DNA of 55,983 bases, filler included, from Stramenopiles sp. TOSAG23-6 (lineage: Eukaryota), in assembly GCA_900128565.1 (NCBI GenBank). It is 4 parts of 4 records of this genome, joined end to end, with 100 filler letters (N's around TTAATTAATTAA, not from the genome) between each part and the next. Parts side by side here need not be neighbours in the genome. Positions count along the whole stretch, not along the records: positions 1 to 13,961 come from LT636152.1; 3 more parts are not named here. The stretch is one strand, 5' to 3'. Shown piece by piece: positions 1 to 54,870 of the stretch. Position numbers and translations under genes: made by a program. The number at the start of each line of letters is the position of its first letter. Within the stretch, counting starts at the first letter, position 1. The notes beneath the pieces were generated by a model, which saw only the letters and a list, made by a program, of their open reading frames with translations, searched no databases and was not told the origin of the DNA.

Positions 1-55
1 TTTGTACCTAACAATTTTTTTTAGTTTTTTTTTGAAATATTTTTCCAAAATACAT

Positions 56-2068
56 ACGGCATTGCATTTCCCAAAAAGAAACAATTAAAACGTTGGATAA
101 AACTAGAAGAAGAAGCAAAAAAAAGAGATCATCGAGTCATTGGAAAAAAACAAAAATTATTTGCATTTCATGAATCAAGTCCTGTATGTTTTATATGAAT
201 TTCCAATTTAATTTTTTATTTTTTTTATTTTATTTTTTTTTTAAATTTTTTTTTATTTTTTATTTTTTCATACGAAATTTCGTACCTAACGATTTTTTTT
301 TTTTTTTGAAATTTTTTTTCACACTACATGGTGCTGCATTTTTTTTACCTCATGGGACAAGAATATTTCAAAATTTGCTTTTATTTCTACGTTCTGAATA
401 TGCAATACGTGGATATAATGAGGTAATGACTCCATTAATGTTTAATCCTTCATTATGGAATACTTCTGGGCATTTAACACATTATCAAGAAAATATGTTT
501 TCTGTTGTTCCCGGCTCTACTAACCCTAACCCTACTAACCCTAACCCTAATTGTATGGAACAACATGAAAGAATGAATTTAAAACCAATGAACTGTCCAG
601 CTCATTGTGTTATTTATGGAATGGAAGGGTCAAGGTCATATAGACAATTGCCATTACGAATTGCTGATTGTATGTTTTCATTATTTTTTACTTTTTATTT
701 TTGAAAAAAAAAAAAAATTTTAATTTAAAAATTTTTTTTTTTTCATAATTTTTTAAATTTTTTATTTTTTTTTAATTTTTTTTAAATTTTTTTAAAATTT
801 TTTTTATATTCTTATAAAACATGTACTGCAATTCATCGAAATGAATTATCAGGAGCATTGGGAGGTCTTACTCGTCTTCGACATTTCCATCAGGACGATG
901 CACATATTTTCTGTACTCATGATCAAATTTCATCTGAAATATCTGATTGTTTGGATTTTGTTGAAAAAGTTTATTCTTTATTAGGGTTTACAATCAATTT
1001 AAAATTATCAACTCGACCTGAGAAGTCATTAAGTGGTAATAATTATAATACTAATAATTATAATAATGATGATAATTATAATTATAATAGTAATAATAGT
1101 AATAATAATTATAATAGTAATAATAATGATGATAATAATAATAATACTAATAATGATAGTAATGATAAAAATAATACTACTAATACTAATACTAATAATA
1201 ATAATGATAATAATACTAATAATTATAATACTAATAATAATAATGATAATAGTAACCCTGGAACAATAGTTGGCTCAGATATAGATTGGATGAATGCTGA
1301 AAATTCATTATCTGAAGCATTAACAAAAAAATATGGAAAAAATGGATGGTCTGTTGATCCAGGAGAGGGTGCATTTTATGGTCCAAAAATTGATGTGATT
1401 GTGACAGATGCTCTTAATAGAAAACATGTACGTTTTTTTCATTATGAATTTCACATTTTTTTTTTTTTTTTTTTTTTTTTTCAAAAATTTATTAGTTTTT
1501 TTTTCATAGTAAATTTCGTACCTAACGATTTTTTTTCTCAAAATTTTGAAATATTTTTCCAAAATACATGAACAAACTGCAGGTAAATTTCCTGTTTGGT
1601 TAAGTCCAAGACATTGCTCAATTATACCAATATCAAACGAAACTCATGGTGAGTTTGCAAAAGCAATTTGTAATAAAATGGTACGAAATCATATTTATGC
1701 AGATATTGATGATAGTGCAAATACATTGAATAAGCGTGTGAGAGATGCACAAATAAGTCAATATGTACGTTTTTTTTTCAATTTTTTTTTCGTACGAAAT
1801 TTTGTACCTAACAAATTTTTAATTTTTTTTTTCGTACAAAGAAATTCTAATCATTTGTTTTTTTAAATATTTCTTTACAAAACATAATTATGTTATTATT
1901 GTAGGTGATGAAGAAATTGGAGATTGGAGTGTGGGTAATGATGTCGAGAATGTTTTTGTAAATATCCGAAAACGTGATGGTGACGTCATTGGAAAAAAAA
2001 AATTATCAGAATTTATGAATCATATTCAAAATGAGATTTCGTGTCCTGAACCTTTTGTTGTCTCATAA
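56..2068 (+). CDS. TARS: Threonyl-tRNA synthetase, 5'-truncated; exons 56-183, 330-669, 823-1427, 1570-1764, 1886-2068
   Basis: Spliced translation gives [97 protein letters not shown]. The class II motif-3 segment (about 50 aa) is absent. Confidence 0.95.
184..329 (+). other. Non-canonical intron GT...CAT (palindrome+CTAAC at 271-290)
   Basis: cct|gtatgtttt...ctacat|ggt restores conserved SPG. There is no AG anywhere in the intron. Confidence 0.9.
521..550 (+). repeat. Interstitial telomere-type (CCCTAA)n tract inside a ThrRS exon (one of roughly 30 in the window)
   Basis: taaccctaaccctactaaccctaaccctaa encoding [10 protein letters not shown]. Confidence 0.85.
670..822 (+). other. Non-canonical intron GT...CAT (no recognisable palindrome)
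   Basis: gat t|gtatgtttt...aaaacat|gt act restores [10 protein letters not shown]. Confidence 0.88.
1428..1569 (+). other. Non-canonical intron GT...CAT (possibly two introns collapsed)
   Basis: cat|gtacgtttt...aaatttcgtacctaac...aaaatacat|gaa. The join is in frame but skips a conserved segment. Confidence 0.7.
1765..1885 (+). other. Non-canonical intron GT...CAT
   Basis: caa tat|gtacgtttt...aaaacat|aat tat gtt restores QYNYVIIVG. Confidence 0.88.
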
Positions 2069-2507: not shown

Positions 2508-4875
2508 TTAAAATCCTTTTTCATCATTTGTTCGTAAAGTTTTAAGTTTAATTCGTTTATGCTTTCTGTGAAGATGATTCACTTTGTTCACTTTGAGTTT
2601 TTTCTTTTGTTGATGATGAGCATGAGAAGAAGAATGTTCACTTTTGAATCGTGATTTTGAATCACCTGGTGTAAATAATCCTTGCAAACCATCCGAATAT
2701 CCGCTCACTTCTTCAGCGATTCTGGCTTGCACTTTTCGTTCTTGTTCTTCTTCCGAATATCTTGAAGGGTGCCGCAGCGAATCGCTGTAGGCTTTCGACG
2801 GTGGCTCATTCATTCTAAGCTTTCTTTCGGCTTCTTCGTATTGTTCTCGTGTAACCACTGATGGTTTACCATCTCTCCGCGCTTCATCCAACCTTTGCTG
2901 TTGTGCTTTCGTATCTCCAACATTTTTTATAGGGTTATAAATAGCCCAATTCTCATTGACAAGTGGGCGTTGTATCTCCAGATATTTTCCGATTATTTTT
3001 ACATGTTCAGGTGTAGCTGGAACTTTTGCAAGTTCATTTGCTGCAAACATATATTTTATAACCACATTAGCTGATGTATTTTGGAAAAATATTTCAAAAA
3101 AAAACTCTAAAAAAAATTGTTAGGTACAAAATTTCGTATGAAAAAAAAATTTAAAAAATTTAAAATAATAAAACGTACATTGTTCCATAATTTCAAGTGT
3201 AGCACGATCAAGTTGAATTTTTTTTTCAGCCTCTTTTTGTTTTTTTGTCATTCCAGCAGTAGTTCGATCACGAAGAACTGAACTGTTGGCTGTGTCAAGA
3301 AATGGGATTTGAATATCTTTTAGTTCATCTGATTTTGCAACCGCAACTCTTTTGGCCTGGTCATCGAGTGTATTCCAATTAGCAACTAGTGTTCCATCAA
3401 TATTTGGTGCAGACCCTGCAATTCTAGATCGCATAAATATTTCCCATTTGTCTCTATGCGATAAATTTTTACGTTTTCCACCCGAAAATTTTTTTTTGTC
3501 ATTTTCTAGCTTATCCTTATCTGCATACATTGGGAAAAATATATCAAATTTGAATTGTGTTAGGTACGAAACGTTCAATAAAAAAAAATACAATTTAAAA
3601 TTCATGATGAAAACAAACTGTTTTGGCTGCTTTGACTTTCTCCTGAAGTATTTGTTCAAATTTGCTCCTAACAATTTTATGAAATGTTATACCATGTTTG
3701 TGCTGCAACAAATTATTCCACGTTAGTCGCGTTGGTGGCGTTGGTGCTGCTGCTTGCATTTCGGCTATTTTCGCCCGAACTGTTGCTATTTGTTCGTCGT
3801 TCAATCCCTCGTTCAAGACGTCCACAGTTACATCCTGATCCTGATCCAGAATTTCTTTCTTAGCTCTCGCAGTCAAAAAATTATCCAATTGCTCATCTCC
3901 GTAATCTGACCGAAATGTTTTCAGTTGTTTTTCCAAAAACGGTTTAAACTCACTAGATTTTTTTTTAAAATGTTCTGGAGCATTTTGTGGCGGCTTCGCT
4001 AGCAAAAGATCGAGAAATATTTTCACTTCCTTTTCGAAATCTTCGACTTTAGTAATATCACGCATTGATACGAAAACAATATTTTCTACTACTTGTTTTT
4101 TTTCTTTAGCGTTGTTTTCCTTAGTTAGATGAGCAGTATCAATCTGATTAAAACTATCTGTAATATGTTTTCTAGTCTTAGGTCCAACTCCAATGTTTAT
4201 TAAGGCTGTATTCAAATCTCCTTCCGTCAACAGCGCCAACAAATGGTCAACTGCATTTTTTTGGTCGATTTCAAATTCTTTCGTAAAAGTCTGCCCAAAA
4301 TCCTCATTAAATATTTTCCCAAGAAAAGGAGTAGCGAAGAAATAAAACCATCTTTTCCACGATTCCGCTTTATCACGACTCTCCTTCGTATCCAGACTCT
4401 GTAGTGCACGGAATCCCTCGGGGTTTTTTTTTTTTAGATCATATGCTTTTTGCCATGCATCCTTCACTTTTTGTTGAACGAAGAATTCTGTTTGTGGTGT
4501 TACGTGTACTGCACCATCGTCTCCCCCCCATTTATCAGAATCTCCAACTTTTAACATTCGATCAGATATTTCCTTGTAGTTAACCGTTTTATCAGTTTTG
4601 GTACAAGAAGGTTGTTTGGGACGGCACATACTGTGGACTTCATAAATGAAACCATTCTCTTCCGTCAGTTCCATTTCAAAATCTTCTCTTGCATTGGATT
4701 GTGGTCTTAATTCTCCTATGAAACGATCCTTTTCTTTCTTAGCAGCTTCTTCGACGTCTTTGTCGGGTTTCTTCAAATTCGATTCGAGGTCCAAGACCGC
4801 CTTCGCCACGTTCATCATCGCCCAGGTTTGCCCAACCAGAGACAGCATCATCATTATCATCATCATAGCGTTCAT
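2508..4875 (-). CDS. Hypothetical secreted protein (~722 aa); exons 4875-3619, 3524-3179, 3073-2508
   Basis: Three track ORFs fuse in frame after removing two AT-ended introns. The N-terminus is signal-peptide-like (MMMIMMMLSLVGQTWA). No family recognised. Confidence 0.75.
3074..3178 (-). other. Non-canonical intron GT...CAT
   Basis: caa t|gtacgtttt...tacgaaattttgtacctaac...aaaatacat|ca gct, in frame. Confidence 0.85.
3525..3618 (-). other. Non-canonical intron GT...TAT
   Basis: aca|gtttgttttcat...tttcgtacctaac...caatgtat|gca gat, in frame. Confidence 0.8.
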
Positions 4876-7755: not shown

Positions 7756-10700
7756 TCAATGCTCCATACAATCCATATTGCTCTTTACAAGTACAGATTT
7801 TATTACCTGATGAGTAACTTCCTTTACTCTTTGATTTGTTGTTATACGAAATATATTTACTGAAGGTGCATGTAAGACACCACAGGTCACTGGCATTGCT
7901 CTTATACTAATCTTTATTTTTCCACAATTTTCATTTATTTGTAATCTTGCACATATATAGTGAAAATATATTATAAAAAAATAAACATTGTTTAGGTAAA
8001 AAAAATTAAAAAAAAATTTAAAAAAAAAATTGAAATGATGTAAATGTACACGTTTTACCCATGAGTAACCATGTCTTTGGAACTACCGTTATATTATATT
8101 CAAACTCATTACATTCACATTCAATCATTGCATCATCTACGTTATGTACTTGAACAATATATTCAAAATTTAATAAAACGCCTAATTCGCCGTGAGTCAA
8201 ATGTTTCGATTGAACAATCCAAAATTGATTGTCATCAATGCGACTTTGCATTTGAAAGACTCTTTTTTTTTTTTTTTNAATTGATCTTTTAGATTTTTTA
8301 GATTTTTTGGATTTAATTCTTCATTATCGAATGAATATACGGGTATGAATCCATACCGACAACCACCTCCTTTAGGCATCTTAAAATATATTAATACACT
8401 AAATGTATACGACTTATTTTCGTTTGCGTTAGACCCTAACCCTACCTCTGCAGTACTAGGGTTAGGGTTATTTTTTGAATATTGAGTCAGATCAAACGAA
8501 CAATATAAGGTACTATCTTTACTAACAAAATGCACAACATTTTCATCTATATTGAATATATCTACACTATTGACATCATCTAATGAAATATATCGAAATA
8601 ATGTAATACTTGTAATACAAATATTATCATCTTTAATCGATTTATCCTCTTTTTTTTCATTAGGGTTAGGGTTATACAATTTGTCTATATTTTCTATATT
8701 TTCTATATTTGTATTTACATTTACATTTTTTTTTTGATACAATTTATCTAAATTTTCTATATTTTCTATATTTGTATATAGATTATCAGATTGTATCATA
8801 CTACTTTTTGTGGCAACTGTTGATGTATCAAACAAACCTGCTGAAGGAAATATTTGAATTTGCATATACGTTTTTCGTGTTATTTTGTTTTTCGTGGTTT
8901 CATATGTACTAGGGTTAGGGTTATTTGAAGTAGTAGACATTGTTGTATTCATTATTTTACCTATACTCATAAATGATTCAAGGCAATTCAATGACACAAT
9001 TTGTTCAGCAACTTTATCTGAAATACTATTTATATAAGAATATTTTTTTTCTGTTGAAATCGATGACGTCATCGAAGAATTATTTTTTTCTGTTGAAATC
9101 GATGACGTCATCGAAGAATTATACACACATATTTTTATATTTGTTTCAAAACTCTGATTCATTAGGGTTAGGGCGGAAGGGTTTGATATATATATTGAAA
9201 ATAACATAGTAATCAATTGATCCTCAAATGATTTTTTCCTACTATTTTCGAAAGTGTTAGGGTTAGGGATATTGTCCATATCAACAAGAGGAGAAATCAA
9301 AAAATAATTCGACTTATTTGGTATTGAAACAGACCTGTATTTTACACCTTTATCATTTTTATCAGACGTATCATTTTTAATTATATTACAGTCGCATACA
9401 ACAAACTGTACGTGTGATTTTAATTGATTATGGTGTTTAGAATCATCTATAATTTCTAAAGATACAATATATGATGTATCATGATTTTTTAGATTTTTTT
9501 GATTTTTGTACTTATTTGGTACGGATAATTCAACCTTCAATGTATTACTACATTGCTGAAAATTCATGCAATTATCAAAATGTACATTTTTCAATGAAAA
9601 TGTATTTCGTATTTGTCGTTGTATCTGTTGTGATGGAGTAGCAATAATAGAATTCGGTGGAGTACATAATAAAGTACCGGGTAACTTTGGTGGATTCACA
9701 CGAATTCTCCAATCAGTCGTTGCTGCACTCACAACTTCATCATCATGTTCTTTGGGCAAATATGACTAGGGTTAGGGTTGAGGGTTTAGTTACAATTTGA
9801 AATGTATTTGATATATATATATATAGTAAGTATAATATATATTTCATCAATTATTATAAATTTGTCAAAAAAAAAAAAAAAAAAATTTAGGATGAAAACA
9901 AAAAAAAACCTACATAAATTTGAGCATCAAGAGTCAAACATCCAATTACAATTTGAACACAATCAAATCTATATATAGCACATAAAGATGGTGTTCCAAA
10001 AAGATTTACAATATTTCGTGTCTTATGCGATAAAATACCATTGGATTTCACTACGAATTCAGTATAAAAATTTTCATCATTATCATCATTTTCATCATCA
10101 TCATTATTATTACTCTTATTATCATCATTATTATTATCATTTTCATCATTATCATCATTATCATCATCAGCATTATCATTAGTATTATTATTATCATTAT
10201 CATCATTATATAATTTGGTTTTTATTTCTGAAAATGTATTTTTTGTTATCTTTTGTTGAGGTTCTAATAAAGCAACAACACCAAGCCTGACAATAATTTG
10301 ATCATATGGAATATCACTCGCAATATTTAATTGAATACAACATTGTATACAAATTTCATTACCTAAAGAAACTTCATATGAACCACCATCAATACTTGTG
10401 AAATCCATTTGTTGTTTTGTATTTTTTCCATTTTTTCCATTTTTTGTATTTTTTGTATTAGGGTTAGGGTTTGTATCAATAATTAGATTACTTCGTTTTC
10501 GACAGCGTTCCAAAGGACTTTGACATTTCGTACTTAATTTTGTACCTAATGAATTTTGAATGTCTTGTGGTTGTGTTGTATTATTAGGGTTAGGGTCTGA
10601 CTGTTTTGTATGAAAATTTTCTACTTTTTCAAAAGGAGCAACTTCACAAAATACTAAATAACGTAATGATTGTTGTAATTGTTTTTTACATTCAAAATTA

Positions 10701-13700
10701 TTTGTATTTACGATTTCATTTTTGATATTTTTGATATTTTTGACATTTTTGATATTTTCCAGATTTGATTCAGGTTTTATACTAGGATATTTCATTATTT
10801 TTCGTGTTTTGACTGATCGTACAATGGCTGATATATAACTTTTAAATATATTTTGACAATATTTTGAGTTTTGTGAATCATTTAAATTTTTTTCATTTTT
10901 TTCATTTTTTTCATTTTTTTCATTTTTTTCATCTATACTACTTGATAGTTCTTGTGTAAACATATCACCAAAACTAGTTTTGTTTTGTGCAATAAATTGT
11001 ATAACAGCTAGGTATGCTTTTATAGTATTAATAAAAAGTGCTGATGATGATTGATTAGGGTTAGGGTTTGACACATTCTCATTAGGGTTAGGGTTAGGGT
11101 TATATTGTATATACATTGCTTCTTGGCATTGAGCTGATAATGTCAATAAATGTAAATAAATAAAAGGCCAAAATCGTCTTTCATTTCGATATGGGACATG
11201 TCGTATTTTAGAAAGATACTCATTTGCTTTAAAAAACTGTTTACATTGTATCAAATGTTTTGTACAAAAATTCTAGAATTTTTTTTTTTTGGTTTGTTAG
11301 GTACAAAATTTCGTATGAAAAAAAAAATTTGAAAAAAAAAAAAAAAATTGAAAGTGAAAGTGAACACGTACATGGTGTATAGAAATATTATATAAATGTA
11401 AAGCCTGTCTATCTCGTTGTGCCTGTACATAAAACTTTGCAGCTTTGGAAGTTACTTTTGACATTTTATCTTGAAATAATGAATAATCATTCAAAACTTG
11501 AAACAGGTTTGTATCTTTCGATTCTGAATCAAATGTTGGTGTCCAAAATACTTTATATTCAGTCATTATTGATTTTGAAGTAATTTGTCCAGGAAACCAA
11601 AATTGAGTTTTGACTACATTCTTGTTCTTATTATTATTAGTAGTATTATTATTATTATTAGTAGTAGTAGTATTGTTATTATTATTATTATTGTTATTAT
11701 TACTATTAGTAGTAGTAGTATTGTTATTATTATTATTAGTATTAGTATTCTGAGTTTTGCATTCATCATTACTCAGTTGTTGGGATGGTTTAAATACTAG
11801 AGATTTAATGACAAATAATGTTGATGAAGCAATGGATAGTAAATCAGCCAATGCAATAAAAATTCGTCTCTTAAGACGAATTTTTTGTTTTTGACGTTTT
11901 TGTTGATTTGTACCAAATTTTGTACGTAATAAAACATCATTTGTATTGTCATATTCCTTTGCAGTGAATATTGATGCTGCTTCAATTGTAGATGCTAATG
12001 CAATTGATGCATGATATATCCAAGAATATACACGAAATCTTGATTCTTTATGTAAAACTAGTTTTTGAGATGATGCGTTATTATCATTATTTATAGTAGT
12101 AGTAGTAGTAGTAGTAATATCATTCATATCATCATTCATAGTAGTAGTAGTAGTAATGTCATTCGTATCATTATTTATAGTAGTAGTAGTAGTAGTAGTA
12201 GTAATGTCATCCGTATCATCATTCATAGTAGTAGTAATATCATTCATATCATCATTCATAGTAGTAGTAGTAGTAGTAATGTCATTCATATCATCATTCA
12301 TAGTAGTAGTAGTAATATCATTCATATCATCATTTGTGTACGAAAGCAAAATATGACGTAATTTCCGTATAGCCATAATAGACCGTTCAGCAGCATCAGC
12401 AACAGATGATAAATCATTGATACACAATAAAAGAATTATTTGTCTTGATACAAGATAAATTCGAAATTGAATCGTACTGATTAAACTTTTTTGTATCAAT
12501 TTTCTATAGAAATCTTTTTTTGTATGTGCCATTTCAAGAATTTGCGAACCATTCTCCGATTTTTGTAATGGTTTATCTAACATATGAATACAAAAATTTA
12601 GGTTTTGATTTTTTTTTTTCGCATTTTTTTGATTTTTTTGATTTTTTTGATGTTTCGGACTGGGACAGCTTTCATTAGGGTTAGGGTTTCCTGGTGGTGT
12701 TAATGGAATGTTTTCATGATTATCAAATTTGCTATCTTTAGTTGGAGGTGTAAGTGAGGATGGAATTTTCACTGTCGGTATATTTGATTTCAAATTATTA
12801 TTATATTTTATTTTTTCAAGATTTGGATTATTTGTCATTTCATCATTAGGGTTAGGGTTTATTATTTTTTTTATTGGAGTATGTAAAAGTGTAGCAGGGT
12901 TAGGGTTATTATTGAAACCTTGTTTTTCGTGTTTTTCGTGTTGTTGACGATGTAATGATATTGTATACATATATATATCATGAAGTATATCATATTCACG
13001 TAAAGCTTCTTCATCCAATTTTGAAAAATATATCAAATTCAAAATTCATAAGGTACGAAATTTTCATACAAAAATGTGTAATTAGGGTTAGGGTTATAGG
13101 GAAAAAAAAACCTACATATAAATGAAATGTTTCTAATAAAATAGCAAAATTCTCTCGAAGGTAAAAATAATTACAGAAATTCCAACCTGGCATGTATTTT
13201 GGAAAAATATTTCAAAAAAATCTAAAAAAACTCGTTAGGTACAAAATTTTTTGAAAAAAATAANTNGATTTTTTTNTAAAAAAAAAAAATAAAACATACA
13301 TCATACACTGACTCCAACGTTTTTCAATTTCTAATTTATATCGATCACAACGAGAATAAAATGTTTTACTAATGGAATTGGTAATGAATATATACAAATT
13401 TTTAAAACGATTTGTAGTTGTCATTGTAGAACTTGTATTCATTTGTGTTAGGGTTTCATTTCGTTGTTTTTCGTCGATGACTGTTGATGTTTGTATGGTA
13501 GATATATATTGTGAAAAATATTGTACATTTGAAATTTGTTAGGTACAAAATTTCGTAAGAAAAAAAATTCTATGATTAGGGTTAGGGTTAGGGTTGATGA
13601 AAACATTCGCTATTGTAGTATTATTTGTATTATTATTTGTATTATTATTAGTATTATTTGTATTATTTGTATTATTATTAGTATTATTTCTACTACTACT

Positions 13701-13908
13701 AATAATAGTCGTCTTTATAACCTTGTTTGTGTCATTTTGTTTATTAGGGTTAGGGCTTGTCTGAATTGGATTATTTTCGTTAGGGTTAGGGTTATTTAAA
13801 TCAATTTGAATGACTCGACGGGAAAATAAATTACTTGATTGGCCCACAGGGAATTTGAATCGTTTCCCATCAAAATCAGAACACATTTTCTCAAATATTC
13901 TAGAGTGT
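7756..13908 (-). CDS. TRAPPC10: TRAPP II subunit TRAPPC10/Trs130-like, 5'-truncated; exons approx. 13908-13609, 13503-13300, 13191-13116, 13012-11372, 11254-9914, 9765-8050, 7952-7756
   Basis: Spliced MPGWNFCNYFYLRENFA..LYEEALREYD and C-terminal WLLMGKT..AMPVTCGVLHAP match my recollection of the family. Apparent frameshift in the poly-A/N run near 8278. The acceptor of intron 9766-9913 (probably GT-AG) is uncertain. Confidence 0.8.
7953..8049 (-). other. Non-canonical intron GT...TAT
   Basis: acg t|gtacattt...tacctaaac...cactatatat|gt gca, in frame. Confidence 0.75.
11255..11371 (-). other. Non-canonical intron GT...CAT
   Basis: cat|gtacgtgtt...tacgaaattttgtacctaac...aaaacat|ttg joins two long ORFs in frame. 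Confidence 0.85.
13013..13115 (-). other. Non-canonical intron GT...GAT
   Basis: tat|gtaggtttt...aaattggat|gaa gaa restores LYEEALREYD. Confidence 0.8.
13192..13299 (-). other. Non-canonical intron GT...CAT
   Basis: atg at|gtatgtttt...aaaatacat|g cca ggt tgg restores MPGWNF. Confidence 0.88.
13504..13608 (-). other. Non-canonical intron GA...TAT containing three telomere-type repeats
   Basis: gc|gaatgttttcat...tacgaaattttgtacctaac...caatatat|a tct is in frame. The flanks are low-complexity, so the boundaries are less certain. Confidence 0.6.
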
Positions 13909-13961
13909 ATGTATTTTGGAAAAATATTTCAAAAAAAATCGTTAGGTACAAAATTTCGTAC

Positions 13962-14061
13962 NNNNNNNNNNNNNNNNNNNNNNNNNNNNNNNNNNNNNNN
14001 NNNNNTTAATTAATTAANNNNNNNNNNNNNNNNNNNNNNNNNNNNNNNNNNNNNNNNNNNN
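13962..14061. other. Artificial contig spacer (N-run, TTAATTAATTAA, N-run)
   Basis: Six-frame-stop linker; the same layout recurs at 28016-28115 and 42005-42104. Confidence 0.97.
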
Positions 14062-14226: not shown

Positions 14227-16050
14227 ATGTTAAGAGAGTCGGGAATTTTATGCAGAGACTATATTGTGCCTCATTTTACTATTAATTTAGATGATCCAGC
14301 TCATACAAGGTGGAAGCCGGTGATTGGTGCATACAAACATAAGTTTTCGCAGTTACTTACTGTACTTCACTCGTCATATATTGACTTTGAGAAATCGTCG
14401 GAAGATTTTTTTTCGCGACTTCGTGATGGACTTTTTAAGCAACTAAAAGATCTGGGCGCTGCGTATCTTGTAGATGAGCTGTGTTCTATTGCGAAACATT
14501 CCGATAATATTCTCTCCGTTAATGATGTGGTTCTTTTGCATCTTAGCTTAGAGGCTCTATCTGGGTGCACTTCGTGTATTTCACCTCCCCAAATTTGTAA
14601 AAGTGANCATGTTGGACCTTTTCTTGGGCGCACTCTTGATTGGGATATGCAAATTCTACGTGAGTTGACAATAGAAGTCAGTTTCAAATCTAGAGGAATT
14701 GAAATTTTTAGGTGTACTACATGGGCTGGATATATAGGAATACTAACAGGTTGTAAATGTGGGGCATATTGCGCNGCTGTTAATTATCGACAGGATTTGA
14801 ATACTGAAGAAATGAGCGGTTTTTCTTCTTGGCCTGTAGGATTACTCCTCAGAAATGTATTTGAAAATTGCAATTCATTCAATGAAGCTGTGCAACGCTT
14901 CTCTAATGCACCTTTGTGGGCTCCTTGCTATATATACGTTTTCATCACGAATTTCAAAATTATTTTTTTTTGTTTTTCATACGAAATTTTGTACCTAAGA
15001 ATTTTTTTTTTTTAGTAGTTACGTTTTCATCGCGAATTTCAAAAATTTTTTTTTTTTGTACTTATGATTTTTCGTACCTATTCCTACGATTTCAATTTTT
15101 GTAATTTTTGTAACATACCTAACAAATTTCAAATTATACGCATATTTTTTATGATACATCATTATTACAGGGACAAATAAAATGGAAGGTCTAATTATAG
15201 CAAGAAATGAAAAAAAGGTTCTTAAAATGAAAAGCTTGACAAATATAGGTACGCTTGTATCACTCAATTCAATTTATTTTTTTTTCGTACGTAATTTTGT
15301 ACCTAAATAGTTTTTGAAGAAAAATATTTTTCACAATACATAATCCCATGATAAATTACTAGTACAAACAAATATTGATTGGTTTAACGAATGTGATAAC
15401 CATTTTATGAATAGTGGAATGCGATTAGAAATTGCCAAAAACATTTGGGATAAATATATGTTTTCATCATTCATTTCAAATTTATTTTTCTTTCACAAAG
15501 AAATTTTATACCTGACGAATTTTTATACTCAACAAAATATTTTTTATACCTGACGAATTTTTATACTCAACAAAATATTTTTCACACTATATTTTTGAAT
15601 ACTACACAAACAAGAAAAAGTGATTCACTTCAACAACGAGAAATTAAATCTGTTTTGTGGACTATTCTGGGATCTAAAACCATTTGTGATGATTCGACTA
15701 TATACGCTACTCTGATGTACGTTTTCATCTTCAATTTCGATTTTTTTTTTATACCAAATCCTAAAGTTTTGTACCGAACAAAAAAATATTCAAATATTTT
15801 GCTTTAATTCATGTGTGTTGGTGAAAACAGTGACAAAACGGGTGGAAGTCACAATAGTTATATATATGAGACGAGAATTTGTAAACCTGAAAAGATTCAT
15901 TTTAAAAAAGAAGAAAATATAGGTAAAGATGATAGATGCGTATTTTTATATTCTATGGTATTAATTGGTGCCATACTTGTAATTATTTATATTATGAATT
16001 ATTGCGAAAACATAGGAGGATTCTTAAATATATCATATAATGAGTTATAG
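14227..16050 (+). CDS. NAAA/acid ceramidase-family Ntn hydrolase; exons 14227-14933, 15160-15248, 15342-15455, 15593-15716, 15813-16050
   Basis: FTINLDDP..RW, nucleophile GCTS, GRTLDW, TWAGYIGILTG, APCYIIITG, LVQTN, TIYATLM across four AT-ended introns. The true start may lie upstream. Confidence 0.88.
14934..15159 (+). other. Non-canonical intron AT...CAT, composite (three motif copies)
   Basis: tat at|atacgttttcat...gatacat|c att restores APCYIIITG. Confidence 0.82.
15249..15341 (+). other. Non-canonical intron GT...CAT
   Basis: ata g|gtacgctt...caatacat|aa tcc puts LVQTN in frame. Any leftward shift creates TAA. Confidence 0.87.
15456..15592 (+). other. Non-canonical intron AT...TAT with internal tandem duplication
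   Basis: aaa t|atatgttttcat...tacctgac (twice)...cactatat|tt ttg, in frame. Confidence 0.8.
15717..15812 (+). other. Non-canonical intron GT...CAT
   Basis: ctg at|gtacgttttcat...ttcat|g tgt, in frame. Confidence 0.82.
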
Positions 16051-17906: not shown

Positions 17907-20900
17907 ATGTCCCAAGCATCAAAATCTGCTCTAAATGACAAATTCTGGGACGGAAAGTTAGTTAGCCATAACGGTATGCTTGATGGTCTTGGGCTGCCTC
18001 AAACGATTCAAACGAAAAGTATCACTACTGTACAAAACGTAAAACAAGCACCCATGAAAAATGTATTAGATCTACATGAACATAATTTACCCCCTTATGC
18101 ACACAAAATAATATTGAAAATACAGAGCTTGTATCGGGCAAGAGTAGCTAGAAAAAATTATAGACCTCCGAGTTTAATGGAACGAAAGGCAGTCAAGGTA
18201 CAAACTGCTTGGCGTCGAGTATTGGGTAGATACCAAAAAGAAACCCGTGTATCCACCCTCTACAAAATGGCACTTGCCTTAGAAAAGGAGTATATGTTAC
18301 ATTCAGAGATTGGGGTAAGTAAAGCTTTGAGGAAAGTACTCCGTTCTAAAGAAGATGTAGAGAATTACAGGCCATCCATTGATGTCTTACGGCATAAAGC
18401 TTCGTCAGCTGCCCGACGTGTAGCTGAACTGCATAAAAAATTGAATCTCGCAAAGATTACACTGAAAGAAAGCACAGCAAAATTGTCGACCAAAGTGTTA
18501 GAATGCATTAATGCAAGAAATTTGTTAGAAACGGAAAACCCTGATGAAACCATTGAAAATTCGTTGTGGTTAAAAAAAGAGGAACTAGAAGACAGAAAAG
18601 AAAAGGTCAAGTATAATCAAAATAAAGTCAAATGTATAGAAGATGATATTGCTACAGCAAATCAATCTGTAGAGATTGCACAAAAAGCTGTTGAAACTAA
18701 GATACATAGTCTGAAAGAAAAACATGTTGCGCTATTCAATTCAAATAGTACGTTTTCATTATGAATTTCAAATTTATTTATCTTTTTGTACGAAATTCCA
18801 TACCTAACGATTTTTTTCAAAAATATTTTTTCGCAATACATTTGATCTTTCTATTGCAAAGGGAATATCCTTTCAGCGACAAACAACAATTAGAATTTCA
18901 CAGAAGTCAAAACTTTTGGCAAACCGTTGTGAAAGACAATCCATTCATTTTGAAAATATTGCAGTGGTATACAGAAAAGCACGTTTTCATTATGAATTTC
19001 AATTTTTTTTTTCGTACGAAATTTTGTACCTAACAAATTTCGAATTTACTTTTTTTTACAATACATGCTTCGGTGGATTCTGAAAATACAGCTTTAAANT
19101 TATTAGCTTGGAGAGAGTATTTTATATCCAGTGCAGCTAAATGTCTAGATAAAATTGGTTTGAAGTCATGGAATGAAGCATGTATAAAAACTTGGAAGTC
19201 ATGCAAACATAGATCACAATGTAAACATAGAGAGTTAAAAAGGGCAAATAGTGCAATTCACAAAATGAAATCTAATTCATCAAAATGGCTGGAAATTCAC
19301 GAGCNAGAGCTACGTACATTTGGTAAAGGTCCTTTGTTTGCTACTGTAAATAATTCAATGTATCCAGAAGTTGAAGAACACCTATGTTTCAAGCCTGCTT
19401 TACCGCCTGGTGAAGCGTTGAGAAGATCGAAAGTATGTAATACTAAAATTCCTACTTTGATAAAATTGAAGATAGAAATTGAATGTGCGTTACAACATGC
19501 TCTGGATCTTCTTCAAAAACGGCGGATTGATTTAGATGCATCCAACGAAGCTATCGCTAAATTCAATAGCAGATTAGAAAGGCACAATCAGCTTATTCAG
19601 CGTTGGAAAGCTTTGGCATCGTATCAGCGTGTTGCAGCTGCTGAGGCAGATAGACTAGCTCATAATTTAAAGTGTCAACTTTTAGAATTAAAAGAAGATN
19701 AATATTATGCACAATTGTCTGTATCGTCTCTGAGCAAGTCTTCGAGTAGTGACTTATCAAATCATCCCTGGATATGGTGGGGTGATGGTAGTCAGTATGG
19801 GGGTGTAGGATGTTATTGGTGGAAAAGTTGTGAAGCTGAGAATGTTCGATTATTTCAATGTTCCAAGGAAACTGCTATTGCGGCTGCTTTTGCAACACGT
19901 GTCGGCTTGTATGTAAGAGATGCNCACTTGGGTTCAATAGCAAAACAAAGGGAAGTAGATGCGTTTATTGATGCAGAACGAGAAAAGGCCAATTGTGCTA
20001 TTGAATTGGCTGAAAAGGTTGCATCAGAACTCGATATTAAAAGTAGAATTCTCTTGAGTAATGTAATTTTAGAAGTAAATGAAACTCAAAGAGAATACGA
20101 TGCATATGCAACAAAAGAACGCACAGCTAGTAATAAAGTTGTTAAAATAGTAAAATTAATAGATTCATATAAAATGAAAGAACGTAGCTCAAGAATAAAT
20201 ATAGACATGGAACCTTCTGTTGATGAAAATGTTCTAAAAAGGCAAAAATTATCCAGACTNATGAAAATAAAAGCTGCTAATACACAGATAGCTTCACTCA
20301 AAGAAAAATACAAAATTCTCGAATCAAATCGTCTTGAGATTCTTGTAGAATTGTCAGAAGTACAAACCCGACTTGCAAAGGCTCAAATGGGACGAGCTTC
20401 TACAGTTGCAATGATTGCGAAAATTGCGTGCGACAATGCTGTATCTTTAGCTAACGCCCATGTCATTAGTGCTTCGGTTATCAATGCAGCAAACATTGCA
20501 CGTCCTGGCAGAGAAAGGGCCAACAAATTAGTTGCAACTGGTAAAGTTTCTTGTGTAATAGCTGAAATATGTAAAAAAAATGCCATTGAGCAACACTCTC
20601 AATATCTTCACAAAAAGGCAACAGAGGATGAGAAAGAGCATATAGAATGGTTGAAAGCTAATTCGGATTCTTTAGAAGAAATTCGTTCAATCGAGAAAAA
20701 AGAGCAAAAAAGATTAAAAATAGTATCCAAAAAGGCTGCAATTCTTTACACCCGAGAACAAGAGACAGGTCGTGCTCTTGCAAGTGCAGAGTCTGATCTT
20801 ATTGAATGCGTACGGGATGCTGACTCCTCGCGAGAACGTTCAAAAGAGGAAATAAAGTTTGCAATAACAAAACAAGAAGATGCTGTGAAAACAGCTCGTG

Positions 20901-28015: not shown

Positions 28016-28115
28016 NNNNNNNNNNNNNNNNNNNNNNNNNNNNNNNNNNNNNNNNNNNNTTAATTAATTAANNNNNNNNNNNNNNNNNNNNNNNNNNNNN
28101 NNNNNNNNNNNNNNN
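28016..28115. other. Artificial contig spacer
   Basis: N-run, TTAATTAATTAA, N-run. Confidence 0.97.
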
Positions 28116-28728: not shown

Positions 28729-29285
28729 TGAAGTATTGGATGTATGCATTGTTTTTACACGAAAACTCACAAATTGATTTAACAAATAAATTGGTAACTC
28801 TTTCAAAACAATACTTTTTTTACATACTTTGCTTCTTAGCAATACTTTAATATGCCTTTTCGAATTAGCTTTATATATATATATATATATATATAATAAG
28901 CATGTAGGAGTTGTATCATATACTATGCTTGTGTCGTCAATAGACCATCGAAACCTGAAGAGGCATGAAAGATTAAGAAAAATATTTCAAAAACTTTGAA
29001 ATAATGTTTTGTTAGGTACAAAATTTCGTATGAAAAAAAAAAGGNGTAAAGAAGAAAAAAGTTTATTATTCATAAAACTCTTCTACATTTTTTAAAATGA
29101 AAAAATCAAACACAGATCACTCATACACTACACACTTATAACTACATGTATACACACACTCACTCATAACGACATTTATACACTATACTCACAGACACTC
29201 ACAGAAGAACTTCATTAGGGTTAGGGTTAGTAGGGGGATTGAATACTCCTCTACACACTCAAACACTTATAGAATGAATTTCTTA

Positions 29286-37997: not shown

Positions 37998-40793
37998 ATG
38001 AAGGAAATTTTGCGTTTCACATTAACCGTGTTGATCGTGCTCCTGTGCGGAGAAGTCCGTTCTTTAACACTTACTTGCGAAGCCGGTTTTACAGGTGCAT
38101 TTTGTCAATTTAAATGCCCCGATAAATGCAGTAGTCACGGTCGTTGTTACATATCAAAAAGGAATAAACCTCTTTGTAAGTGTGAACCTGGTTTTTCTGG
38201 TACTGCTTGTAAAGAAACTGAGAAATGTCCACGAACTTGTGGTGATAATGGTGTATGCCGCCAAGGCAATTGTTTATGTAACCCTGGATTTACTGGTACT
38301 CAGTGTAAAACAGAGAAAAAATGTACAAATAATTGCAACGGCAAAGGCTTATGTTATAGAGGATTGTGTCACTGTTACCCGGGTTACTCTGGTAAGCAGT
38401 GTACTAAGAAGTTAGCGTGTCCTTCTAATTGTTCTGGACATGGCATATGTAGATGGGGTAAGTGCCAATGTGAAAAAAATATATCTGGTGACGCGTGTAA
38501 TCAATTTATAGGAGAAAGCACATGTATATCAGATAGTACAGGTGTTGTATGTAATAATAATGGAGTTTGTCTGAATGGAACTTGTTGGTGCCGTCCATAT
38601 TTTAGTGGCACCTTCTGTGAAATATTACAGAAAACGAATCACTATGTTGATTCAATAGAAAAGCCAAAGTCATTAATATCCTTGATGGATGTATGTCTTC
38701 ATCATGATTTCTTTATATATTTTTTTTACTAAGAAAATTTTGTACCTCACGATTTTTTTTTTACAAACAAAAAATATTTTTCACAATATATATTAGTTGT
38801 GGAACAAATTTGTGCAATGGTCGTGGGTTGTGTATTTATGGCAAATGTATTTGCCAAAAAGATTTTTCTGGTGATAATTGTGAAATTTTTATCCCACTCA
38901 AATGCCCTAAAAATTGTTCCGATAAGGGTATTTGCCATAATGGTAAATGTTTATGTTACCCCGGTTATTCGGGTATTTCTTGTAGAGAACTAGATACTTG
39001 TTTGAAAGATTGTAATCTTGATAATGGAAAATGTTTTAATGGGTTTTGTTACTGTTATCCTGGTTTCTCTGGGCCTCTCTGTGATATAAAGGACAGTTGC
39101 CCCCTTGATTGCAGTGGTCATGGAATTTGTGAATCTCCACCCGGAGTTTGTGCATGTGAACATGGGTATGAAGGCAAAGCGTGTGAGATAGCATATCAAC
39201 ATGATACATGTATGTTTTATGTTTTTTCAAATTCGATTTTTGTTTCGTACGAAATGTCGTACCTAACGATTTTTCTTTCAAATATTTTTCCAAAATACAT
39301 GCCCAAATAATTGTAATAATCATGGTACGTGTAATTTCGGTAAATGTTACTGCATGGCAGGGTGGTCTGGAACGGAATGTAATATAAAATCTTCGGCTTG
39401 TCTCAATGATTGTGGAGGCAATGGGCAATGTGTTAATGGAAAATGTTTTTGTCATCCATCATACACTGGTGTAAGTTGTGCCATTAGTGTTCTCTGCAAT
39501 GATGGCCTAGGATGTGGTTCTTTTGGTATATGTTTTGGAGGTAAATGCTTCTGCATGAATGGGTCCATTAGCTCTGACTGCAATGTAAGTAATTTGGATT
39601 TAAGTCTAAATGGATTTGAAGTAGCCCAAGCATCATTGTGTCCAATGTCTTGTTCTTTTCAAGGTATATGTTTTAAAGGTGTATGTTTGTGTCTTCCTGG
39701 CCACTACGGTAGTGATTGCTCATCAAATTTATTACCAAATGAGAAAAAAGAAAATAGTAGTCATAATATTGTTACTTTTGATCATTCAAAAAACAATTGT
39801 CCAAACTCTTGTGGTGGGTCTGAACGGGGGCTTTGTTTTTTGCAAAGGTGTTTTTGTTACCCTCCATTTGGTGGGGTAGATTGTACTGAATATGTACCTG
39901 AGGCATGTCCTGAACAATGCTCATTTCAAGGTGTGTGTATGTATGGCAAATGTTTCTGTAATGCTGGTTTTCACGGGGTAACATGTAATATGGCATCAAA
40001 TTGTAAAAACAATTGTAACAAAAACGGGATATGTATTAATGGTCGATGTGAGTGCTTTTCAAATGCAACTGGAGATCATTGTGAAAATGCCTGTCTTTTG
40101 AATTGTTCGGGTCCAGAAAGAGGCAAATGTGTAGAGTCAAAATGTAGTTGTAATTTAGGATTTACCGGTAAAGCTTGCGAAAACATGAATGCTATTACAG
40201 ATATTAACTGGTTTGATGCACAAGCTCATAATATGAAAAATAATACTTTTCGGTTTCGTTCAAGCAGAAATGCAAATAAAGAATCATCTATAGTGGAGCA
40301 CCCAATTCACTATAATAAATTAAGTGAATCATCTATGAATTCACCAGATGTGCATATCAATAATATAGATCATATAACACCTATTACAAAGAAATCTAAT
40401 TTTGATAGGCCAGATTTAATATGTAACAATAATTGTAATGGGCATGGCGTATGTAATAAAGGTAAATGTCTGTGCCATCCTGAGTTTTCCACACCATTTT
40501 GCGATAAAAAGCTCGACTGTAAACCACTAAATTGTTCATCACATGGTATGTGTCGGTTTGGCCAATGTTTTTGCGACCTCGGCTTTAAAGGACCGAACTG
40601 TACCTTAGTTGATGATTTTGCGAATAAATTATGCCCCGGTACAAATGTTGATGGAATTCCTTGTAATGGTACAGGATTGTGCAGAAATAAAACTTGTTTT
40701 TGTAATCCAGGATATACTGGAAATGATTGCTCTCTGAAAAAATCATATAAAAACTGCCCAAATGATTGTTATGGCTGGGGTCAATGTATATAT
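37998..40793 (+). CDS. Secreted tenascin-like EGF-repeat protein, 3' end missing; exons 37998-38690, 38792-39209, 39301-40793
   Basis: Signal peptide and more than 20 CPxxCSGHGxCxxGxCxCxxGFTGxxC-type repeats; Cys spacing is preserved across the introns. Confidence 0.88.
38691..38791 (+). other. Non-canonical intron GT...TAT
   Basis: gat|gtatgtcttcat...ttgtacctcac...caatatat|att, in frame. Confidence 0.82.
39210..39300 (+). other. Non-canonical intron GT...CAT
   Basis: aca t|gtatgtttt...gtacgaaatgtcgtacctaac...aaaatacat|gc cca restores TCPNNCNNHG. Confidence 0.9.
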
Positions 40794-40891
40794 GTACGTT
40801 TCATATGAATTTCTAATTTAAGTTTTTTTTTCATACGAAATTTCGTACCTAACGATTTTTTTACAGAAAAAAAATATGTTTCATAATACAT
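40794..40891 (+). other. AT-ended intron-like segment linking two unrelated genes
   Basis: The donor belongs to the EGF gene (phase 0) and the acceptor precedes the Pif1 exon (phase 2). Confidence 0.7.
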
Positions 40892-43266: not shown

Positions 43267-45473
43267 ATGAATATGTCCAATTCTCCACGGCGACGTACTG
43301 TAAAGGATGCTAGATATAGAACAACTCTTGCCGCTCCTGGTGTTTTTTCTAAAATAAACACGTCCAAGGATTACAAAACAATGCCAATTGTAAGCAAGGG
43401 GAACCTCGTTGGCTCATTGATAGAGTCTTGTTTAGCTCATTCTTCTTCGGCGAGTTCTCCAATAGAATCGATCAGATGTACCAACACAACAGGTACATCG
43501 GACGATTCAACGAAAAATATTACATATTCGGGTAACCCACGTGATTTTTTTAAAACAAAAGAAGCTACTATTTACAACGGACAAAAAACACAAAGAAAGC
43601 ATCTTCTTCGTAAAGCACCGGAAGAACCAGTGACTGAGTTCTTCATACATCNAAAAAAAANCCGTANTTGNCCGTATTATAACACCGAATCAGCATTATC
43701 TACAACATAACGAAATATCTACAGAGTCATATCCTCCACATCCATATCCGTCTGATTGTGTAGGTAGTGAGTTCACAGAGAAAATCCATAAAATGGAAAC
43801 GAAATTATTTTTAGAAACTCAGAAACGACTCAAACTTCGAAAGTCTCTTTTAGAAAAATTAGATACGAAATTTCCTACTATTGATATATGTGATGTACAT
43901 AACGAGGATACAATTCAGTATAATGATAAATTGCAATCTGTAGGAAATTGTTTTGAAATGAAAAATATTGAAGCCCCAATGTGCATTGGTGAAACCTTGA
44001 CCGTAATGAGTGATGAAAAAACAAAATTTAAAAATGAAAATTTCAATATTGTTGATACTATTGTTGATAATATTGTTGATAATACTATTGATAATGAAAT
44101 CAATATCAGCAGCAACAATAGTAACAATACTAATATGAATTCAGTTGAATACAAAAAGTGTATAGTAGAAGATGNAACANTNAATGNAAAAAAAAAAANA
44201 NTTANAAAATGNANTTACAGATTTATTATTGACACGAAAAAACGTACAAGAAGCATCTGGACAATTAAACCTTTCTCAAACGAAATTAAGACAATTAGAA
44301 AACGAACTTTTTAAAATGTTATCTCTTTGTAGATGCATTGATGGAACAAACTTGAAATCTATCAATGAGCTTTCTGAATTGATCCAAGAGCCAATCAAAA
44401 GACATTTTTCTGGATATGATAATTTGGTTTTTATGTACGTTTTTTTTTTTTNTTTTTCATACGAAATGTTGTACCTAACCAAACAAAAAAAATAGACCTT
44501 TTCTTTCAGTATGATATGATGGATGTTTCATGATACTTACTTTTTATTTTTATTCTTTTTTTTTTTTTTTTTTTTTTTTCATGAAACATTTTGTATGAAA
44601 ATGTGTTGCTAATTGTATATATATATTTTTTTTAAATATTTTTTTTTACACAACATTCAAGACAAATTAAAAAAAATGTCAGAATTATTCCTACCTACAC
44701 CGTTAGAAAAGACATTTCAAGACGCTCTCAAACGAACAACTAGAACAAATTCAAATAATTCAAATAATACAAATAATACAAATAATACAAATAATACAAA
44801 TAATACAAATTGTCTTTTAAAAAAAGATGTACAATTACTACACCAAGAAGATAAAGAAAGTATACAATATAATAATAATAATAATAATGATGATTATCCT
44901 ACAGATTTCAACCATCAAAAACATCTCTATTATAAAAAAGATGTAAATAAAGTGATACATAGCCATTCCAATAGTAACCCTAATCCTACTCCTAACGAAT
45001 TCGAAAGATGGTCAAAACATGATTTGAGAGATTTGGTTTGTTTTCAACAACAAAAACAACAAAAACAACAAAAACAACAACAACACAAAAACAATGATTA
45101 TAAAAAAGTGAAAAAAAAAAACGAAAACACTCAAAACACTCAAATGTTTTTTGAAAATAAATTCAAAAAAGCGTCAATTTATGGAATATATAAACGATAT
45201 ATTGTATCTGAACCACCAAAGCAACCAACAAGTACAACAAATACTGTCTGTGTGGAATGTCCAGATGGGGAATTTTTCATGCTAGGCATCTACCACTCGT
45301 CTGAAGGGCACCGACCTTTTGAAGAAATAAATGCTTTTGAAGGGAAAATGGTTGAAGTAATTGGTGTAAAGCATTCAGCCACACCACCAAATTATTATGA
45401 TAAATATGATATCTTGGCAAAAATTACACCTTATATATCAGATTTTACTATAATGGAACATCGAACAGTATAA
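43267..45473 (+). CDS. Hypothetical protein (N-rich, frame-broken sequence); probable GT...CAT intron 44435-44656
   Basis: Consecutive ORFs broken at N bases; ttt at|gtacgt...caacat|t caa is in frame. No family recognised. Confidence 0.5.
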
Positions 45474-47396: not shown

Positions 47397-47510
47397 ATTT
47401 GACCACGAGTTCGACACACACAACATGATTTCTCTGCTTTGCGTCTTCTTCGCCAGTTGCCTCGTCAAAAGTCAACACAATCAAACTATCCGCATTGATC
47501 ATATTTTGCG

Positions 47511-48475
47511 ATGGTAGCTACCGATAGCACTGAAGGTGATTGGTCTACAATGACCAAATGTGGCCGAACACGCCAGATTACACCTGAGGGTTCTCCAAAA
47601 CATAAATTGGAGTGCAAGTGGTCTTTTTGGTACGATGCAAAAAACGCGCAACGTGGGAAAGTTTCATGGCAACGCAACATGGAAAATTTAGGTTCATTTG
47701 ATACTGTAGAAGACTTTTGGTGTCACTATGTACATATGCGCAAGCCAAGTACAATGCCAACTGATAGTAATTACTACTGCTTTCGTAATGGGCTCTTTCC
47801 TGCGTGGGAAACCTTCCCAGGCGGTGGTTGTTGGATCCTCAAGGTAAAGAAAAGTCCAGGTGTTCTCAATACACTCTGGCAAAATCTTTTGTTTGCTCTA
47901 ATTGGTATGTTTTATTTCAAATTATAACTAGTATTGAGTTTTGTTTTTCTCTTTGTACAGATTGTATCATGTTGTTTGTGTGGCGTTTTTTCTTTCATTA
48001 CCTATGAATGAGGTAATTTCTTCTTTTCTTTGATTTCTTTGATTTCTTTGATTTCTTTGATTCATGAGTGATGTGAAATATTTGGACGAGACGGAAAAAC
48101 CCGGTGGTCGCCAATCTCTAAGAAGTACTGACATGTTTGAATCATTCTTTTTTTTACTTTTGATTATTTTCTATAATCAACGTTCTTTATTATTACTATT
48201 ACTTTGATGAAATTATGTTGTGTACTAGAATGAATTCATCATACAATTATGAACCAATAGTCCAAAATTAATTATAAATATAGTTATACTCACTTTATAT
48301 GATGACAACCTTGATACATATTAAACACAATACAGGCGAGATATTTGAAGAACCAGCAGTTGTTGGTTGTATGCTTGCTGCTAGAGGTCGGTTCGATGTT
48401 ATTTCAGTTTGGAATAATAATCCAATTGCAAATACGAGATTTGAAATTGGAGAAGTATTGAAAAGTGTCCTACAG
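47511..48475 (+). CDS. eIF4E-family cap-binding protein; exons 47511-47904, 48336-48475; last exon not found
   Basis: HKLECKWSFWY, FDTVEDFW, PAWE..GGCW, LIGE, ISVWN. Canonical GTATGT...ATACAG intron 47905-48335. Confidence 0.9.
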
Positions 48476-48851: not shown

Positions 48852-49957
<1,106 letters not shown>

Positions 49958-54200: not shown

Positions 54201-54870
54201 AATTCGAAATTGAAAAAAAAAAGAAATTCGAAATTGAAAATCACTTGGAACAAAAACAAAAAATATCAAAAAATTATGTATTCAGTAGTTTGCATGCAAT
54301 GAGTGGATGTCAGCGTTGTGCATTAGCAATAATAAAACGATCATCCGTTGCCTTAAGCTTACGGTGGTCAAATGACTGTGATGAATTTCTTTTAGATTTT
54401 TGTACGTTTTTTTTTTTCAAAATTTTTTTTTCATACGAAATTTCGTACCTAACCATTAAAAAAAAATTTTTTTTTCAAATTTTTTTTTTTTAAATTTTTT
54501 TTTTCATACGAAATTTCGTACCTAACCATAAATTTTTTTTTTTTTGAAAATTTTTTACAAAGTAGGTAAAAATAGTAAAGATTTATATTTGGGTTTACAT
54601 ATGACACGTGGCGAATATGTGCAACGAAAGTGCAAAACATTCGGAGACCCTCCAGGAATGACACGTGGCAAAGAGTATATGAAGTATGATACTCAAAAGA
54701 TTTTTTTTTGGGTTGTTGCAAATGAAATTTCAAAATATTTTGAAAATTCCTCAAGTACGAAATTTCGTATGAAATTTTTTTCAACAGAATCTGGTGAAAA
54801 ATGTATACAAAATGACGTATATAGGAGTATTCAATGTTTATGGAGACGTCTATGCTTTTTACACGGTTGA
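51267..54870 (+). CDS. Hypothetical N/T-rich low-complexity protein; exons approx. 51267-51647, 52066-54401, 54566-54870
   Basis: Long ORF with motif-bearing introns. 54402-54565 (GT...AG) joins in frame. The structure of 51648-52065 is unresolved. Confidence 0.5.

Follow-up and report, generated by a model that had tools for sequence, protein, structure and literature searches.

Nearly all introns of the scaffold analysed here are copies of one family of about 90–150 bases; most of the introns end in AT, and in 16 of the 25 resolved the exon in front of the intron ends in AT as well. Our leading, though tentative, reading is that the family is an introner whose insertion duplicates two target bases, AT, one of which serves as the acceptor. 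In this AT-rich marine stramenopile a short non-autonomous mobile element would thus have filled the genes, supplying the donor GTAYGT and, 33–46 bases before its end, a branch-like CTAAC motif. It would insert at AT, mostly at AT followed by G, leaving one AT on the exon and one closing the insert, and the spliceosome would excise the insert together with one AT, from GT to AT, restoring the frame. At one place two such introns have merged and the intervening 144-base exon is missing, which most likely reflects assembler collapse. It is the mobility, the duplication and the collapse that we infer here.

A repeated intron family and its splice cuts

The window, i.e., the whole stretch of DNA that was analysed (55,983 nucleotides, filler included), is eukaryotic and AT-rich (GC 22–41%), contains three linker gaps and carries about twenty genes named with the use of Pfam. 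Rfam yielded neither a family nor an snRNA for the window. At 27 places, versus 0.015 expected, there is a telomere-like 11-mer composed of two hexamer units, for example at 525–550, 8670–13790 (minus strand) and 52619–54008. Gene spans hold 24 of the 27, and in 23 of these 24 the C-rich strand lies on the coding strand, giving in-frame Asn-Pro repeats; some copies are within introns.

A nine-base core occurs 20 times in the window versus 0.16 expected. The copies have in common a donor block starting with GTAYGT, a T-run ahead of a palindromic core, which closes with the branch-like CTAAC motif, and a tail ending in ACAT. A family profile built from nine copies gave 30 matches in the window (nhmmer, E ≤ 0.01), spread over about ten gene spans. 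Twenty-seven of them are in the sense orientation within gene spans and one lies in an unresolved context. The remaining two are on the opposite strand, one being a weak match in a coding ORF and the other the palindromic core of a plus-strand intron, and none of the 30 is a clearly intergenic or clearly antisense family copy. The core-like segment at 10518–10560 (16 bits) lies antisense and in frame in a long coding ORF of a minus-strand gene, and could be an old antisense fragment that has come to be translated.

Identity within the core is 80% per column. The donor is GTAYGT-like in 17/22 introns, and the intron length is 88–154 bases in 21/25 and 199–226 bases in three. In 15 of 17 copies the branch-like motif is placed 33–46 bases from the intron end; in 7 of the 17 an AG between this motif and the intron end would need to be skipped. 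The intron at 1765–1885 leaves two AGs unused, one 30 bases past the branch-like motif and one 18 bases downstream of the acceptor. We also considered an RNA hairpin in the palindromic core and rejected it, as the share of paired cells, 81%, is no different from that in shuffles, and compensatory pairs number 0/6.

The ends of 22 introns were set from the family consensus and then checked by reading frame. The consensus cut joins long flanking ORFs in frame in 19/22 (G[T/C]...AT or AT...AT), where one third would be expected; for two introns of this set (9913 and 44435) two acceptors were tried and the in-frame one kept, so that the count is slightly favoured. Two of the 22 cuts need the acceptor moved by one base, and one (40794–40891) is never in frame. 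Outside all counts are three copies at 51648–52065, the intron from 48886 (minus strand), the copy at 28985–29049 and the donor at 47905. The last of these is a donor-like site at which the eIF4E ORF (47499–47960) stops, covering only Pfam positions 1–100 of 158; the remainder of the eIF4E domain was sought downstream of 47905 and was not found there.

When joined at GT...AT, the exons of the threonyl-tRNA synthetase (ThrRS) gene form an open frame of 482 residues, and the alignment of the spliced product to P0002, a relative of 755 residues, has no gap at the junctions of 184–329, 670–822 and 1765–1885. Within this gene, positions 1023–1259 hold a 77-residue Asn-rich low-complexity insert without counterpart in P0002. 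In the acid-amidase gene, aligned to its homologue P0121, the junction of 14934–15159 is gap-free; from there to the next conserved block we count 35 residues in the window versus 36, so that 15249–15341 fits within one residue, and the Met codon split by 15717–15812 is kept in homologues. The intron at 14934–15159 holds two head-to-tail family copies, the first lacking a normal tail and the second having a changed first base. As judged from these alignments, homology is shown to back the GT...AT cut at three to six junctions.

The family has two of the features of introners: many similar copies form introns of unrelated genes, the ends of the copies coincide with those of the introns, and exact removal restores the protein. 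Coordinates are collected in Table 1.

Table 1. Exons, introns and family copies in the window; "exon end" gives the last two bases of the exon preceding the intron.
Positions	Strand	Feature	Exon end	Remarks
1–55	+	3' part of family intron, ends AT		cut by window start
56–2067	+	ThrRS gene, exons 56–183, 330–669, 823–1427, 1570–1764, 1886–2067		Pfam/homology
184–329	+	family intron GT-AT	CT	gap-free vs P0002
670–822	+	intron GT-AT without core motif	TT	gap-free vs P0002
1426–1427	+	final two exon bases before 1428–1569	AT	close His codon of upstream ThrRS exon
1428–1569	+	family copy GT...AT, 142 bases (element of the original prediction)		next exon base G; nhmmer 1489–1569, 40 bits
1765–1885	+	family intron GT-AT	AT	gap-free vs P0002
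3074–3178	-	family intron GT-AT	AT	in frame
3525–3618	-	family intron GT-AT	CA	in frame
7953–8049	-	intron GT-AT	GT	in frame
9760–9913	-	intron GT-AT	AT	links a 453-codon ORF to a 520-codon ORF
11255–11371	-	family intron GT-AT	AT	
13013–13115	-	family intron GT-AT	AT	
13192–13299	-	family intron GT-AT	AT	
13503–13604	-	family intron	AT	frame requires GT...TA or one-base shift (TG...AT)
13909–13961	-	3' part of family copy		truncated by gap 13962–14061, at profile position 40
14934–15159	+	intron AT...AT, two family copies in tandem	AT	gap-free vs P0121
15249–15341	+	family intron GT-AT	AG	
15460–15593	+	family intron	AT	frame requires GT...TT or one-base shift (TG...AT)
15717–15812	+	family intron GT-AT	AT	split codon is a conserved Met
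18748–18841	+	family intron GT-AT	TA	47 bits
18979–19066	+	family intron GC-AT	AA	43 bits
28116–28170	+	3' part of family copy		cut at profile position 39 by gap 28016–28115
38691–38791	+	family intron GT-AT	AT	
39210–39300	+	family intron GT-AT	AT	best profile score, 56 bits
40794–40891	+	family copy, chimeric out-of-frame join		EGF-repeat ORF to PIF1-like helicase ORF
44435–44656	+	family intron GT-AT, 222 bases	AT	
48988–49139	-	intron GT-AT	AT	split codon is Met
54402–54600	+	family intron GT-AT, core duplicated in tandem about 73 bases apart	TT	
54684–54787	+	sole GT-AG intron resolved, with palindromic core	AA	

Several searches were made beyond the introns themselves. The transposase that the original prediction had proposed to look for did not appear: Pfam detected no transposase domain among 40 ORFs of at least 120 residues in the window. 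The core motif had no matches in the genome contigs and none in the viral contigs. In metagenome contigs (3 of 64 parts) no close relative was found; the best identity was 56%, and the output was dominated by a conserved peptide pattern. Our search of the literature on non-canonical and GT-AT introns, introners, and MAST introns and splicing brought up no description of these introns, and in the main text of the single-cell genome paper on these lineages the words 'splice' and 'canonical' are absent (PMC5778133).

Gene finders that expect GT-AG miss such introns. The public model of the ThrRS locus, P0001 (386 residues, spanning 186–2065), was the only match when same-species transcripts were sought in the protein collection; comparison by tblastn showed that it matches the window with full identity, reads into the introns and skips parts of the real exons. 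It was also the best protein match to the gene. As P0001 translates intron sequence, the annotation pipeline did not recognise these introns.

The copy at 1428–1569 and the assembly

The element singled out by the original prediction, with AT on either side, was compared with ThrRS proteins. Against the solved structure 5zy9_C, the upstream exon stops at chain residue 238 and the downstream exon resumes at about residue 288. Against P0002, exactly residues 582–629 (48 residues) are missing at the junction, which is in phase 0 on both sides. The missing segment closes the class II catalytic core, and a search of the window in six frames with four peptide patterns for it gave no match. Since 48 residues are absent exactly at the junction, the copy at 1428–1569 is, on the evidence of these alignments, a hybrid in which the 5' part of one family intron runs into the 3' part of the following one, the 144-base exon between them being lost. 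Its left AT and its right AT then belong to different introns, because 48 residues are missing between them, and this particular element fails as an example of a duplication pair.

The exon could have been lost in the assembly or in the genome. Through the copy at 40794–40891, an EGF-repeat ORF of 509 codons in phase 0 runs into the middle of a PIF1-like helicase ORF of 263 codons in phase 2 (Pfam positions 104–157 of 223); this join is probably an assembly error at the repeat. Moreover, two of the three linker gaps end within a family copy, both at profile positions 39–40, in the palindromic core. Because of this misjoin and of the two gaps at copies, we regard collapse of two near-identical repeats by the assembler as the likelier cause, and as a quite probable one. 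The other explanation takes 1428–1569 as one genuine intron, in a dead gene copy which lost its motif-3 exon by intron-intron recombination in the living genome. The loss is exact, 48 residues in phase 0 on both sides, and such repeats may recombine. However, the rest of ThrRS is open over its 482 residues, and the second, out-of-frame join together with the two gaps at copies suggests trouble with the assembly, which makes a genuine deletion unlikely.

Thus, the intron repeat breaks or misjoins the assembly, in addition to being missed by gene finders. Low gene counts and gene decay have been reported in this group (PMC5778133). Given introns that are overlooked and an assembly that is disturbed by them, both the low counts and the reported decay may partly be artefacts.

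The AT on both sides of the introns

The original prediction had AT at the exon end in 14 of 22 introns and T in 17 of 22, and proposed to test the bias at positions −2/−1 against background. Our recount raised both figures, to 16/22 for AT and 18/22 for T at −1. The background of AT, taken from 33,608 coding bases in the window, is 10.2%, or 12.5% before GT, and the probability of at least 16 in 22 is 6e-12 to 8e-10. Three introns resolved later have the exon ends TT, AA and GT, which brings the overall figure to 16/25; four further donors, whose acceptors are not fixed, follow AT, AT, TT and TG. This confirms that the AT excess at exon ends is real and far above chance. The final two bases of the intron are AT in 20/22 (22/25 overall), and the downstream exon opens with G in 11/22 versus a background of 18.6% (P 8.5e-4). 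The resulting junction, AT/GT...AT/G, is the counterpart of the usual AG/GT...AG/G (slashes mark the cuts).

A target duplication that supplies the acceptor is favoured by how large the AT excess is, by a repeat of exactly two bases, by the fact that the introns form a repeat family, and by the precedents in Micromonas and, above all, Fritillaria. The repeat is limited to two bases, as exon −3 is C in 4/22 (background 16%) versus 16/22 for intron −3. The short inverted ends of the original prediction are present, with GTA at the 5' end in 17/22, TAC before the final AT in 11/22 and both in 9/22. However, these ends comprise three bases plus an imperfect match of the T-run to an A-run, and are too short to carry weight.

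Against a strict duplication stand two of the most consensus-like copies, at 18748 (47 bits) and 18979 (43 bits), which lack the exon AT. The exon end is not AT in 9/25 introns, and 8 of these 9 still end in AT; the intron AT therefore behaves like a part of the element. Later exon mutations could account for such mismatches, since identity between the cores themselves reaches just 80% per column. A 2-base duplication leaves the excess of G at exon +1 (11/22) unexplained. The minimal inverted ends, the lack of a clearly intergenic or clearly antisense copy and of a transposase in the window, and the similar profile scores of copies with and without exon AT likewise count against a strict duplication.

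The element may instead own its terminal AT, make no duplication and prefer AT/G targets. This could come about if an element with T...A ends inserts between A and T, or if the excised intron is reverse-spliced into transcripts at junction-like sites and then copied back into DNA. In favour of this account, the intron AT is nearly invariant (22/25) whatever the exon end, being kept in 8 of the 9 mismatches, the exon AT is a preference (64–73%) and not a rule, and G is enriched at exon +1. Reverse splicing also predicts the distribution of the copies: 27/30 are sense within gene spans and none is clearly intergenic, while about 9 intergenic copies would be expected from random insertion (a rough estimate, as is the intergenic share of about 14% of the window). 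From sequence alone, a 2-base duplication and an insertion into the A/T interval would look the same. On the other hand, known systems lend little support to introns spreading by reverse splicing, and Micromonas introners, too, are genic and sense-oriented. A review nevertheless classes the latter as DNA transposons (PMC11282704). We hold an element with its own AT to be a possible but rather improbable source of the pattern. A Helitron-like insertion between A and T was tried and rejected. Helitrons have 5' TC, 3' CTRR and a hairpin near the 3' end; the ends of the present element do not fit, and its internal palindrome is about 45 bases from the end, with compensatory change in 0/6 pairs.

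The exon AT and the G after the intron might also be no trace of insertion at all and represent splicing signals of this lineage, read by altered U1/U5. A at −2 and T at −1 are each found in about 70–80% and G at +1 in 50%, strengths similar to those of the ordinary exon consensus of other eukaryotes. AT is as frequent beside diverged as beside consensus-like copies (the profile score averages 27.5 bits in the 16 with exon AT and 28.8 in the 6 without), and it also precedes the introns at 9913–9760 and 49139–48988, which score little or nothing against the profile. However, such a signal needs a changed U1 5' end, the sole GT-AG intron resolved has the exon end AA (n = 1), and the dinucleotide shared by the exon end and the intron end would be a coincidence. 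We therefore consider a pure splicing signal unlikely. A broader version of this idea appears to us similarly doubtful: the 3' splice site would have been recoded from YAG to YAT genome-wide, with the exon AT read by altered U1/U5 and the family spread by reverse splicing via RNA. The final U might then pair with the first intron base, either G (wobble) or A (Watson-Crick), and this would account for the presence of GT-AT, GC-AT and AT-AT introns alike.

Finally, the true ends could be AT...AC, with the cut displaced leftwards by two bases, as is seen in minor-spliceosome introns. In the 16 introns with exon AT both registers give the same mRNA, and the core resembles a branch-site box. However, the register is impossible for 9/25 introns, the 5' end is unlike the U12-type donor box, and the branch-like motif stands 33–46 bases from the end in 15/17 copies; U12-type introns have the branch box 10–15 bases from the 3' end. 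This makes AT...AC ends very improbable.

We thus return to the 2-base target duplication as the leading reading. From the insertion of a miniature element as originally proposed, the AT excess, the repeat family and the coincidence of its ends with the splice sites stood up. The duplication itself did not separate from a target preference or a splicing signal, since with the AT repeat in 16/25 introns and its absence in 9/25, duplication and preference look alike in the sequence.

Known systems

The non-conventional introns of euglenids were rejected as a parallel, as they require a stable stem pairing the intron ends and only three end bases are complementary here. In the case of U12-type AT-AC introns, 16/25 of ours can formally be written AT...AC, but the donor box, the branch distance and 9/25 introns do not fit.

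Amoebophrya, also a marine protist, likewise has introns that occur in many copies, end non-canonically and carry short duplications at their junctions; however, its duplications vary between 3 and 5 bases and its borders are of many kinds, whereas one border dominates in the present case (summarised in PMC11282704). The introners of Micromonas pusilla and Aureococcus anophagefferens resemble our family in forming many near-identical short introns in unrelated genes, and in that the element provides one splice site and the target duplication the other, as proposed here too (PMC11282704). In Micromonas the duplication that provides the splice site is 3 bases long; terminal inverted repeats are not present in all introners (PMC11282704). 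The Micromonas and Aureococcus elements differ from ours in having GT/GC-AG ends, a 3-base duplication and recognisable inverted repeats, while here we observe an AT acceptor and inverted ends of three bases (PMC11282704).

The closest system is the tunicate Fritillaria borealis, whose non-AG introns are read as insertions of miniature transposons in which the target duplication turned into an acceptor (PMC11282704, PMC13326754). The exon before such an intron carries the motif TAC, and the intron itself closes with AC or AT (PMC11282704). Introns of the Fritillaria type are removed by a modified major spliceosome, with duplicated U2AF and changed snRNA marks; the present window contains neither an snRNA nor the splicing-factor genes. 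The statement of the original prediction that an introner can obtain a splice site from the target duplication thus has published precedents, including one with a non-AG acceptor (PMC11282704). In both organisms the introns look U2-type without an AG end, some of them ending in AT, and the motif preceding the intron repeats its end; in the present window a non-AG acceptor repeats the exon end, with AT closing 22/25 introns and 16/25 exons. If the AT is a target duplication, this would be the second independent case, after the tunicate, of a jumping element creating non-AG introns. The present introns are partly supported as a variant of such transposon-derived non-canonical introns. The variant would be of use in its own right, since a normal GT donor separates the rule of the 3' end from that of the 5' end and, if true, offers a clean system for studying how intron ends are chosen. 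Fritillaria departs from the canonical form at the donor, too (AG-AC, AG-AT), and its duplicate is the 3-base TAC, while here the donor is an ordinary GT and the repeat a 2-base AT; moreover, unlike in Fritillaria, the host is a stramenopile and a single family supplies nearly all the introns seen.
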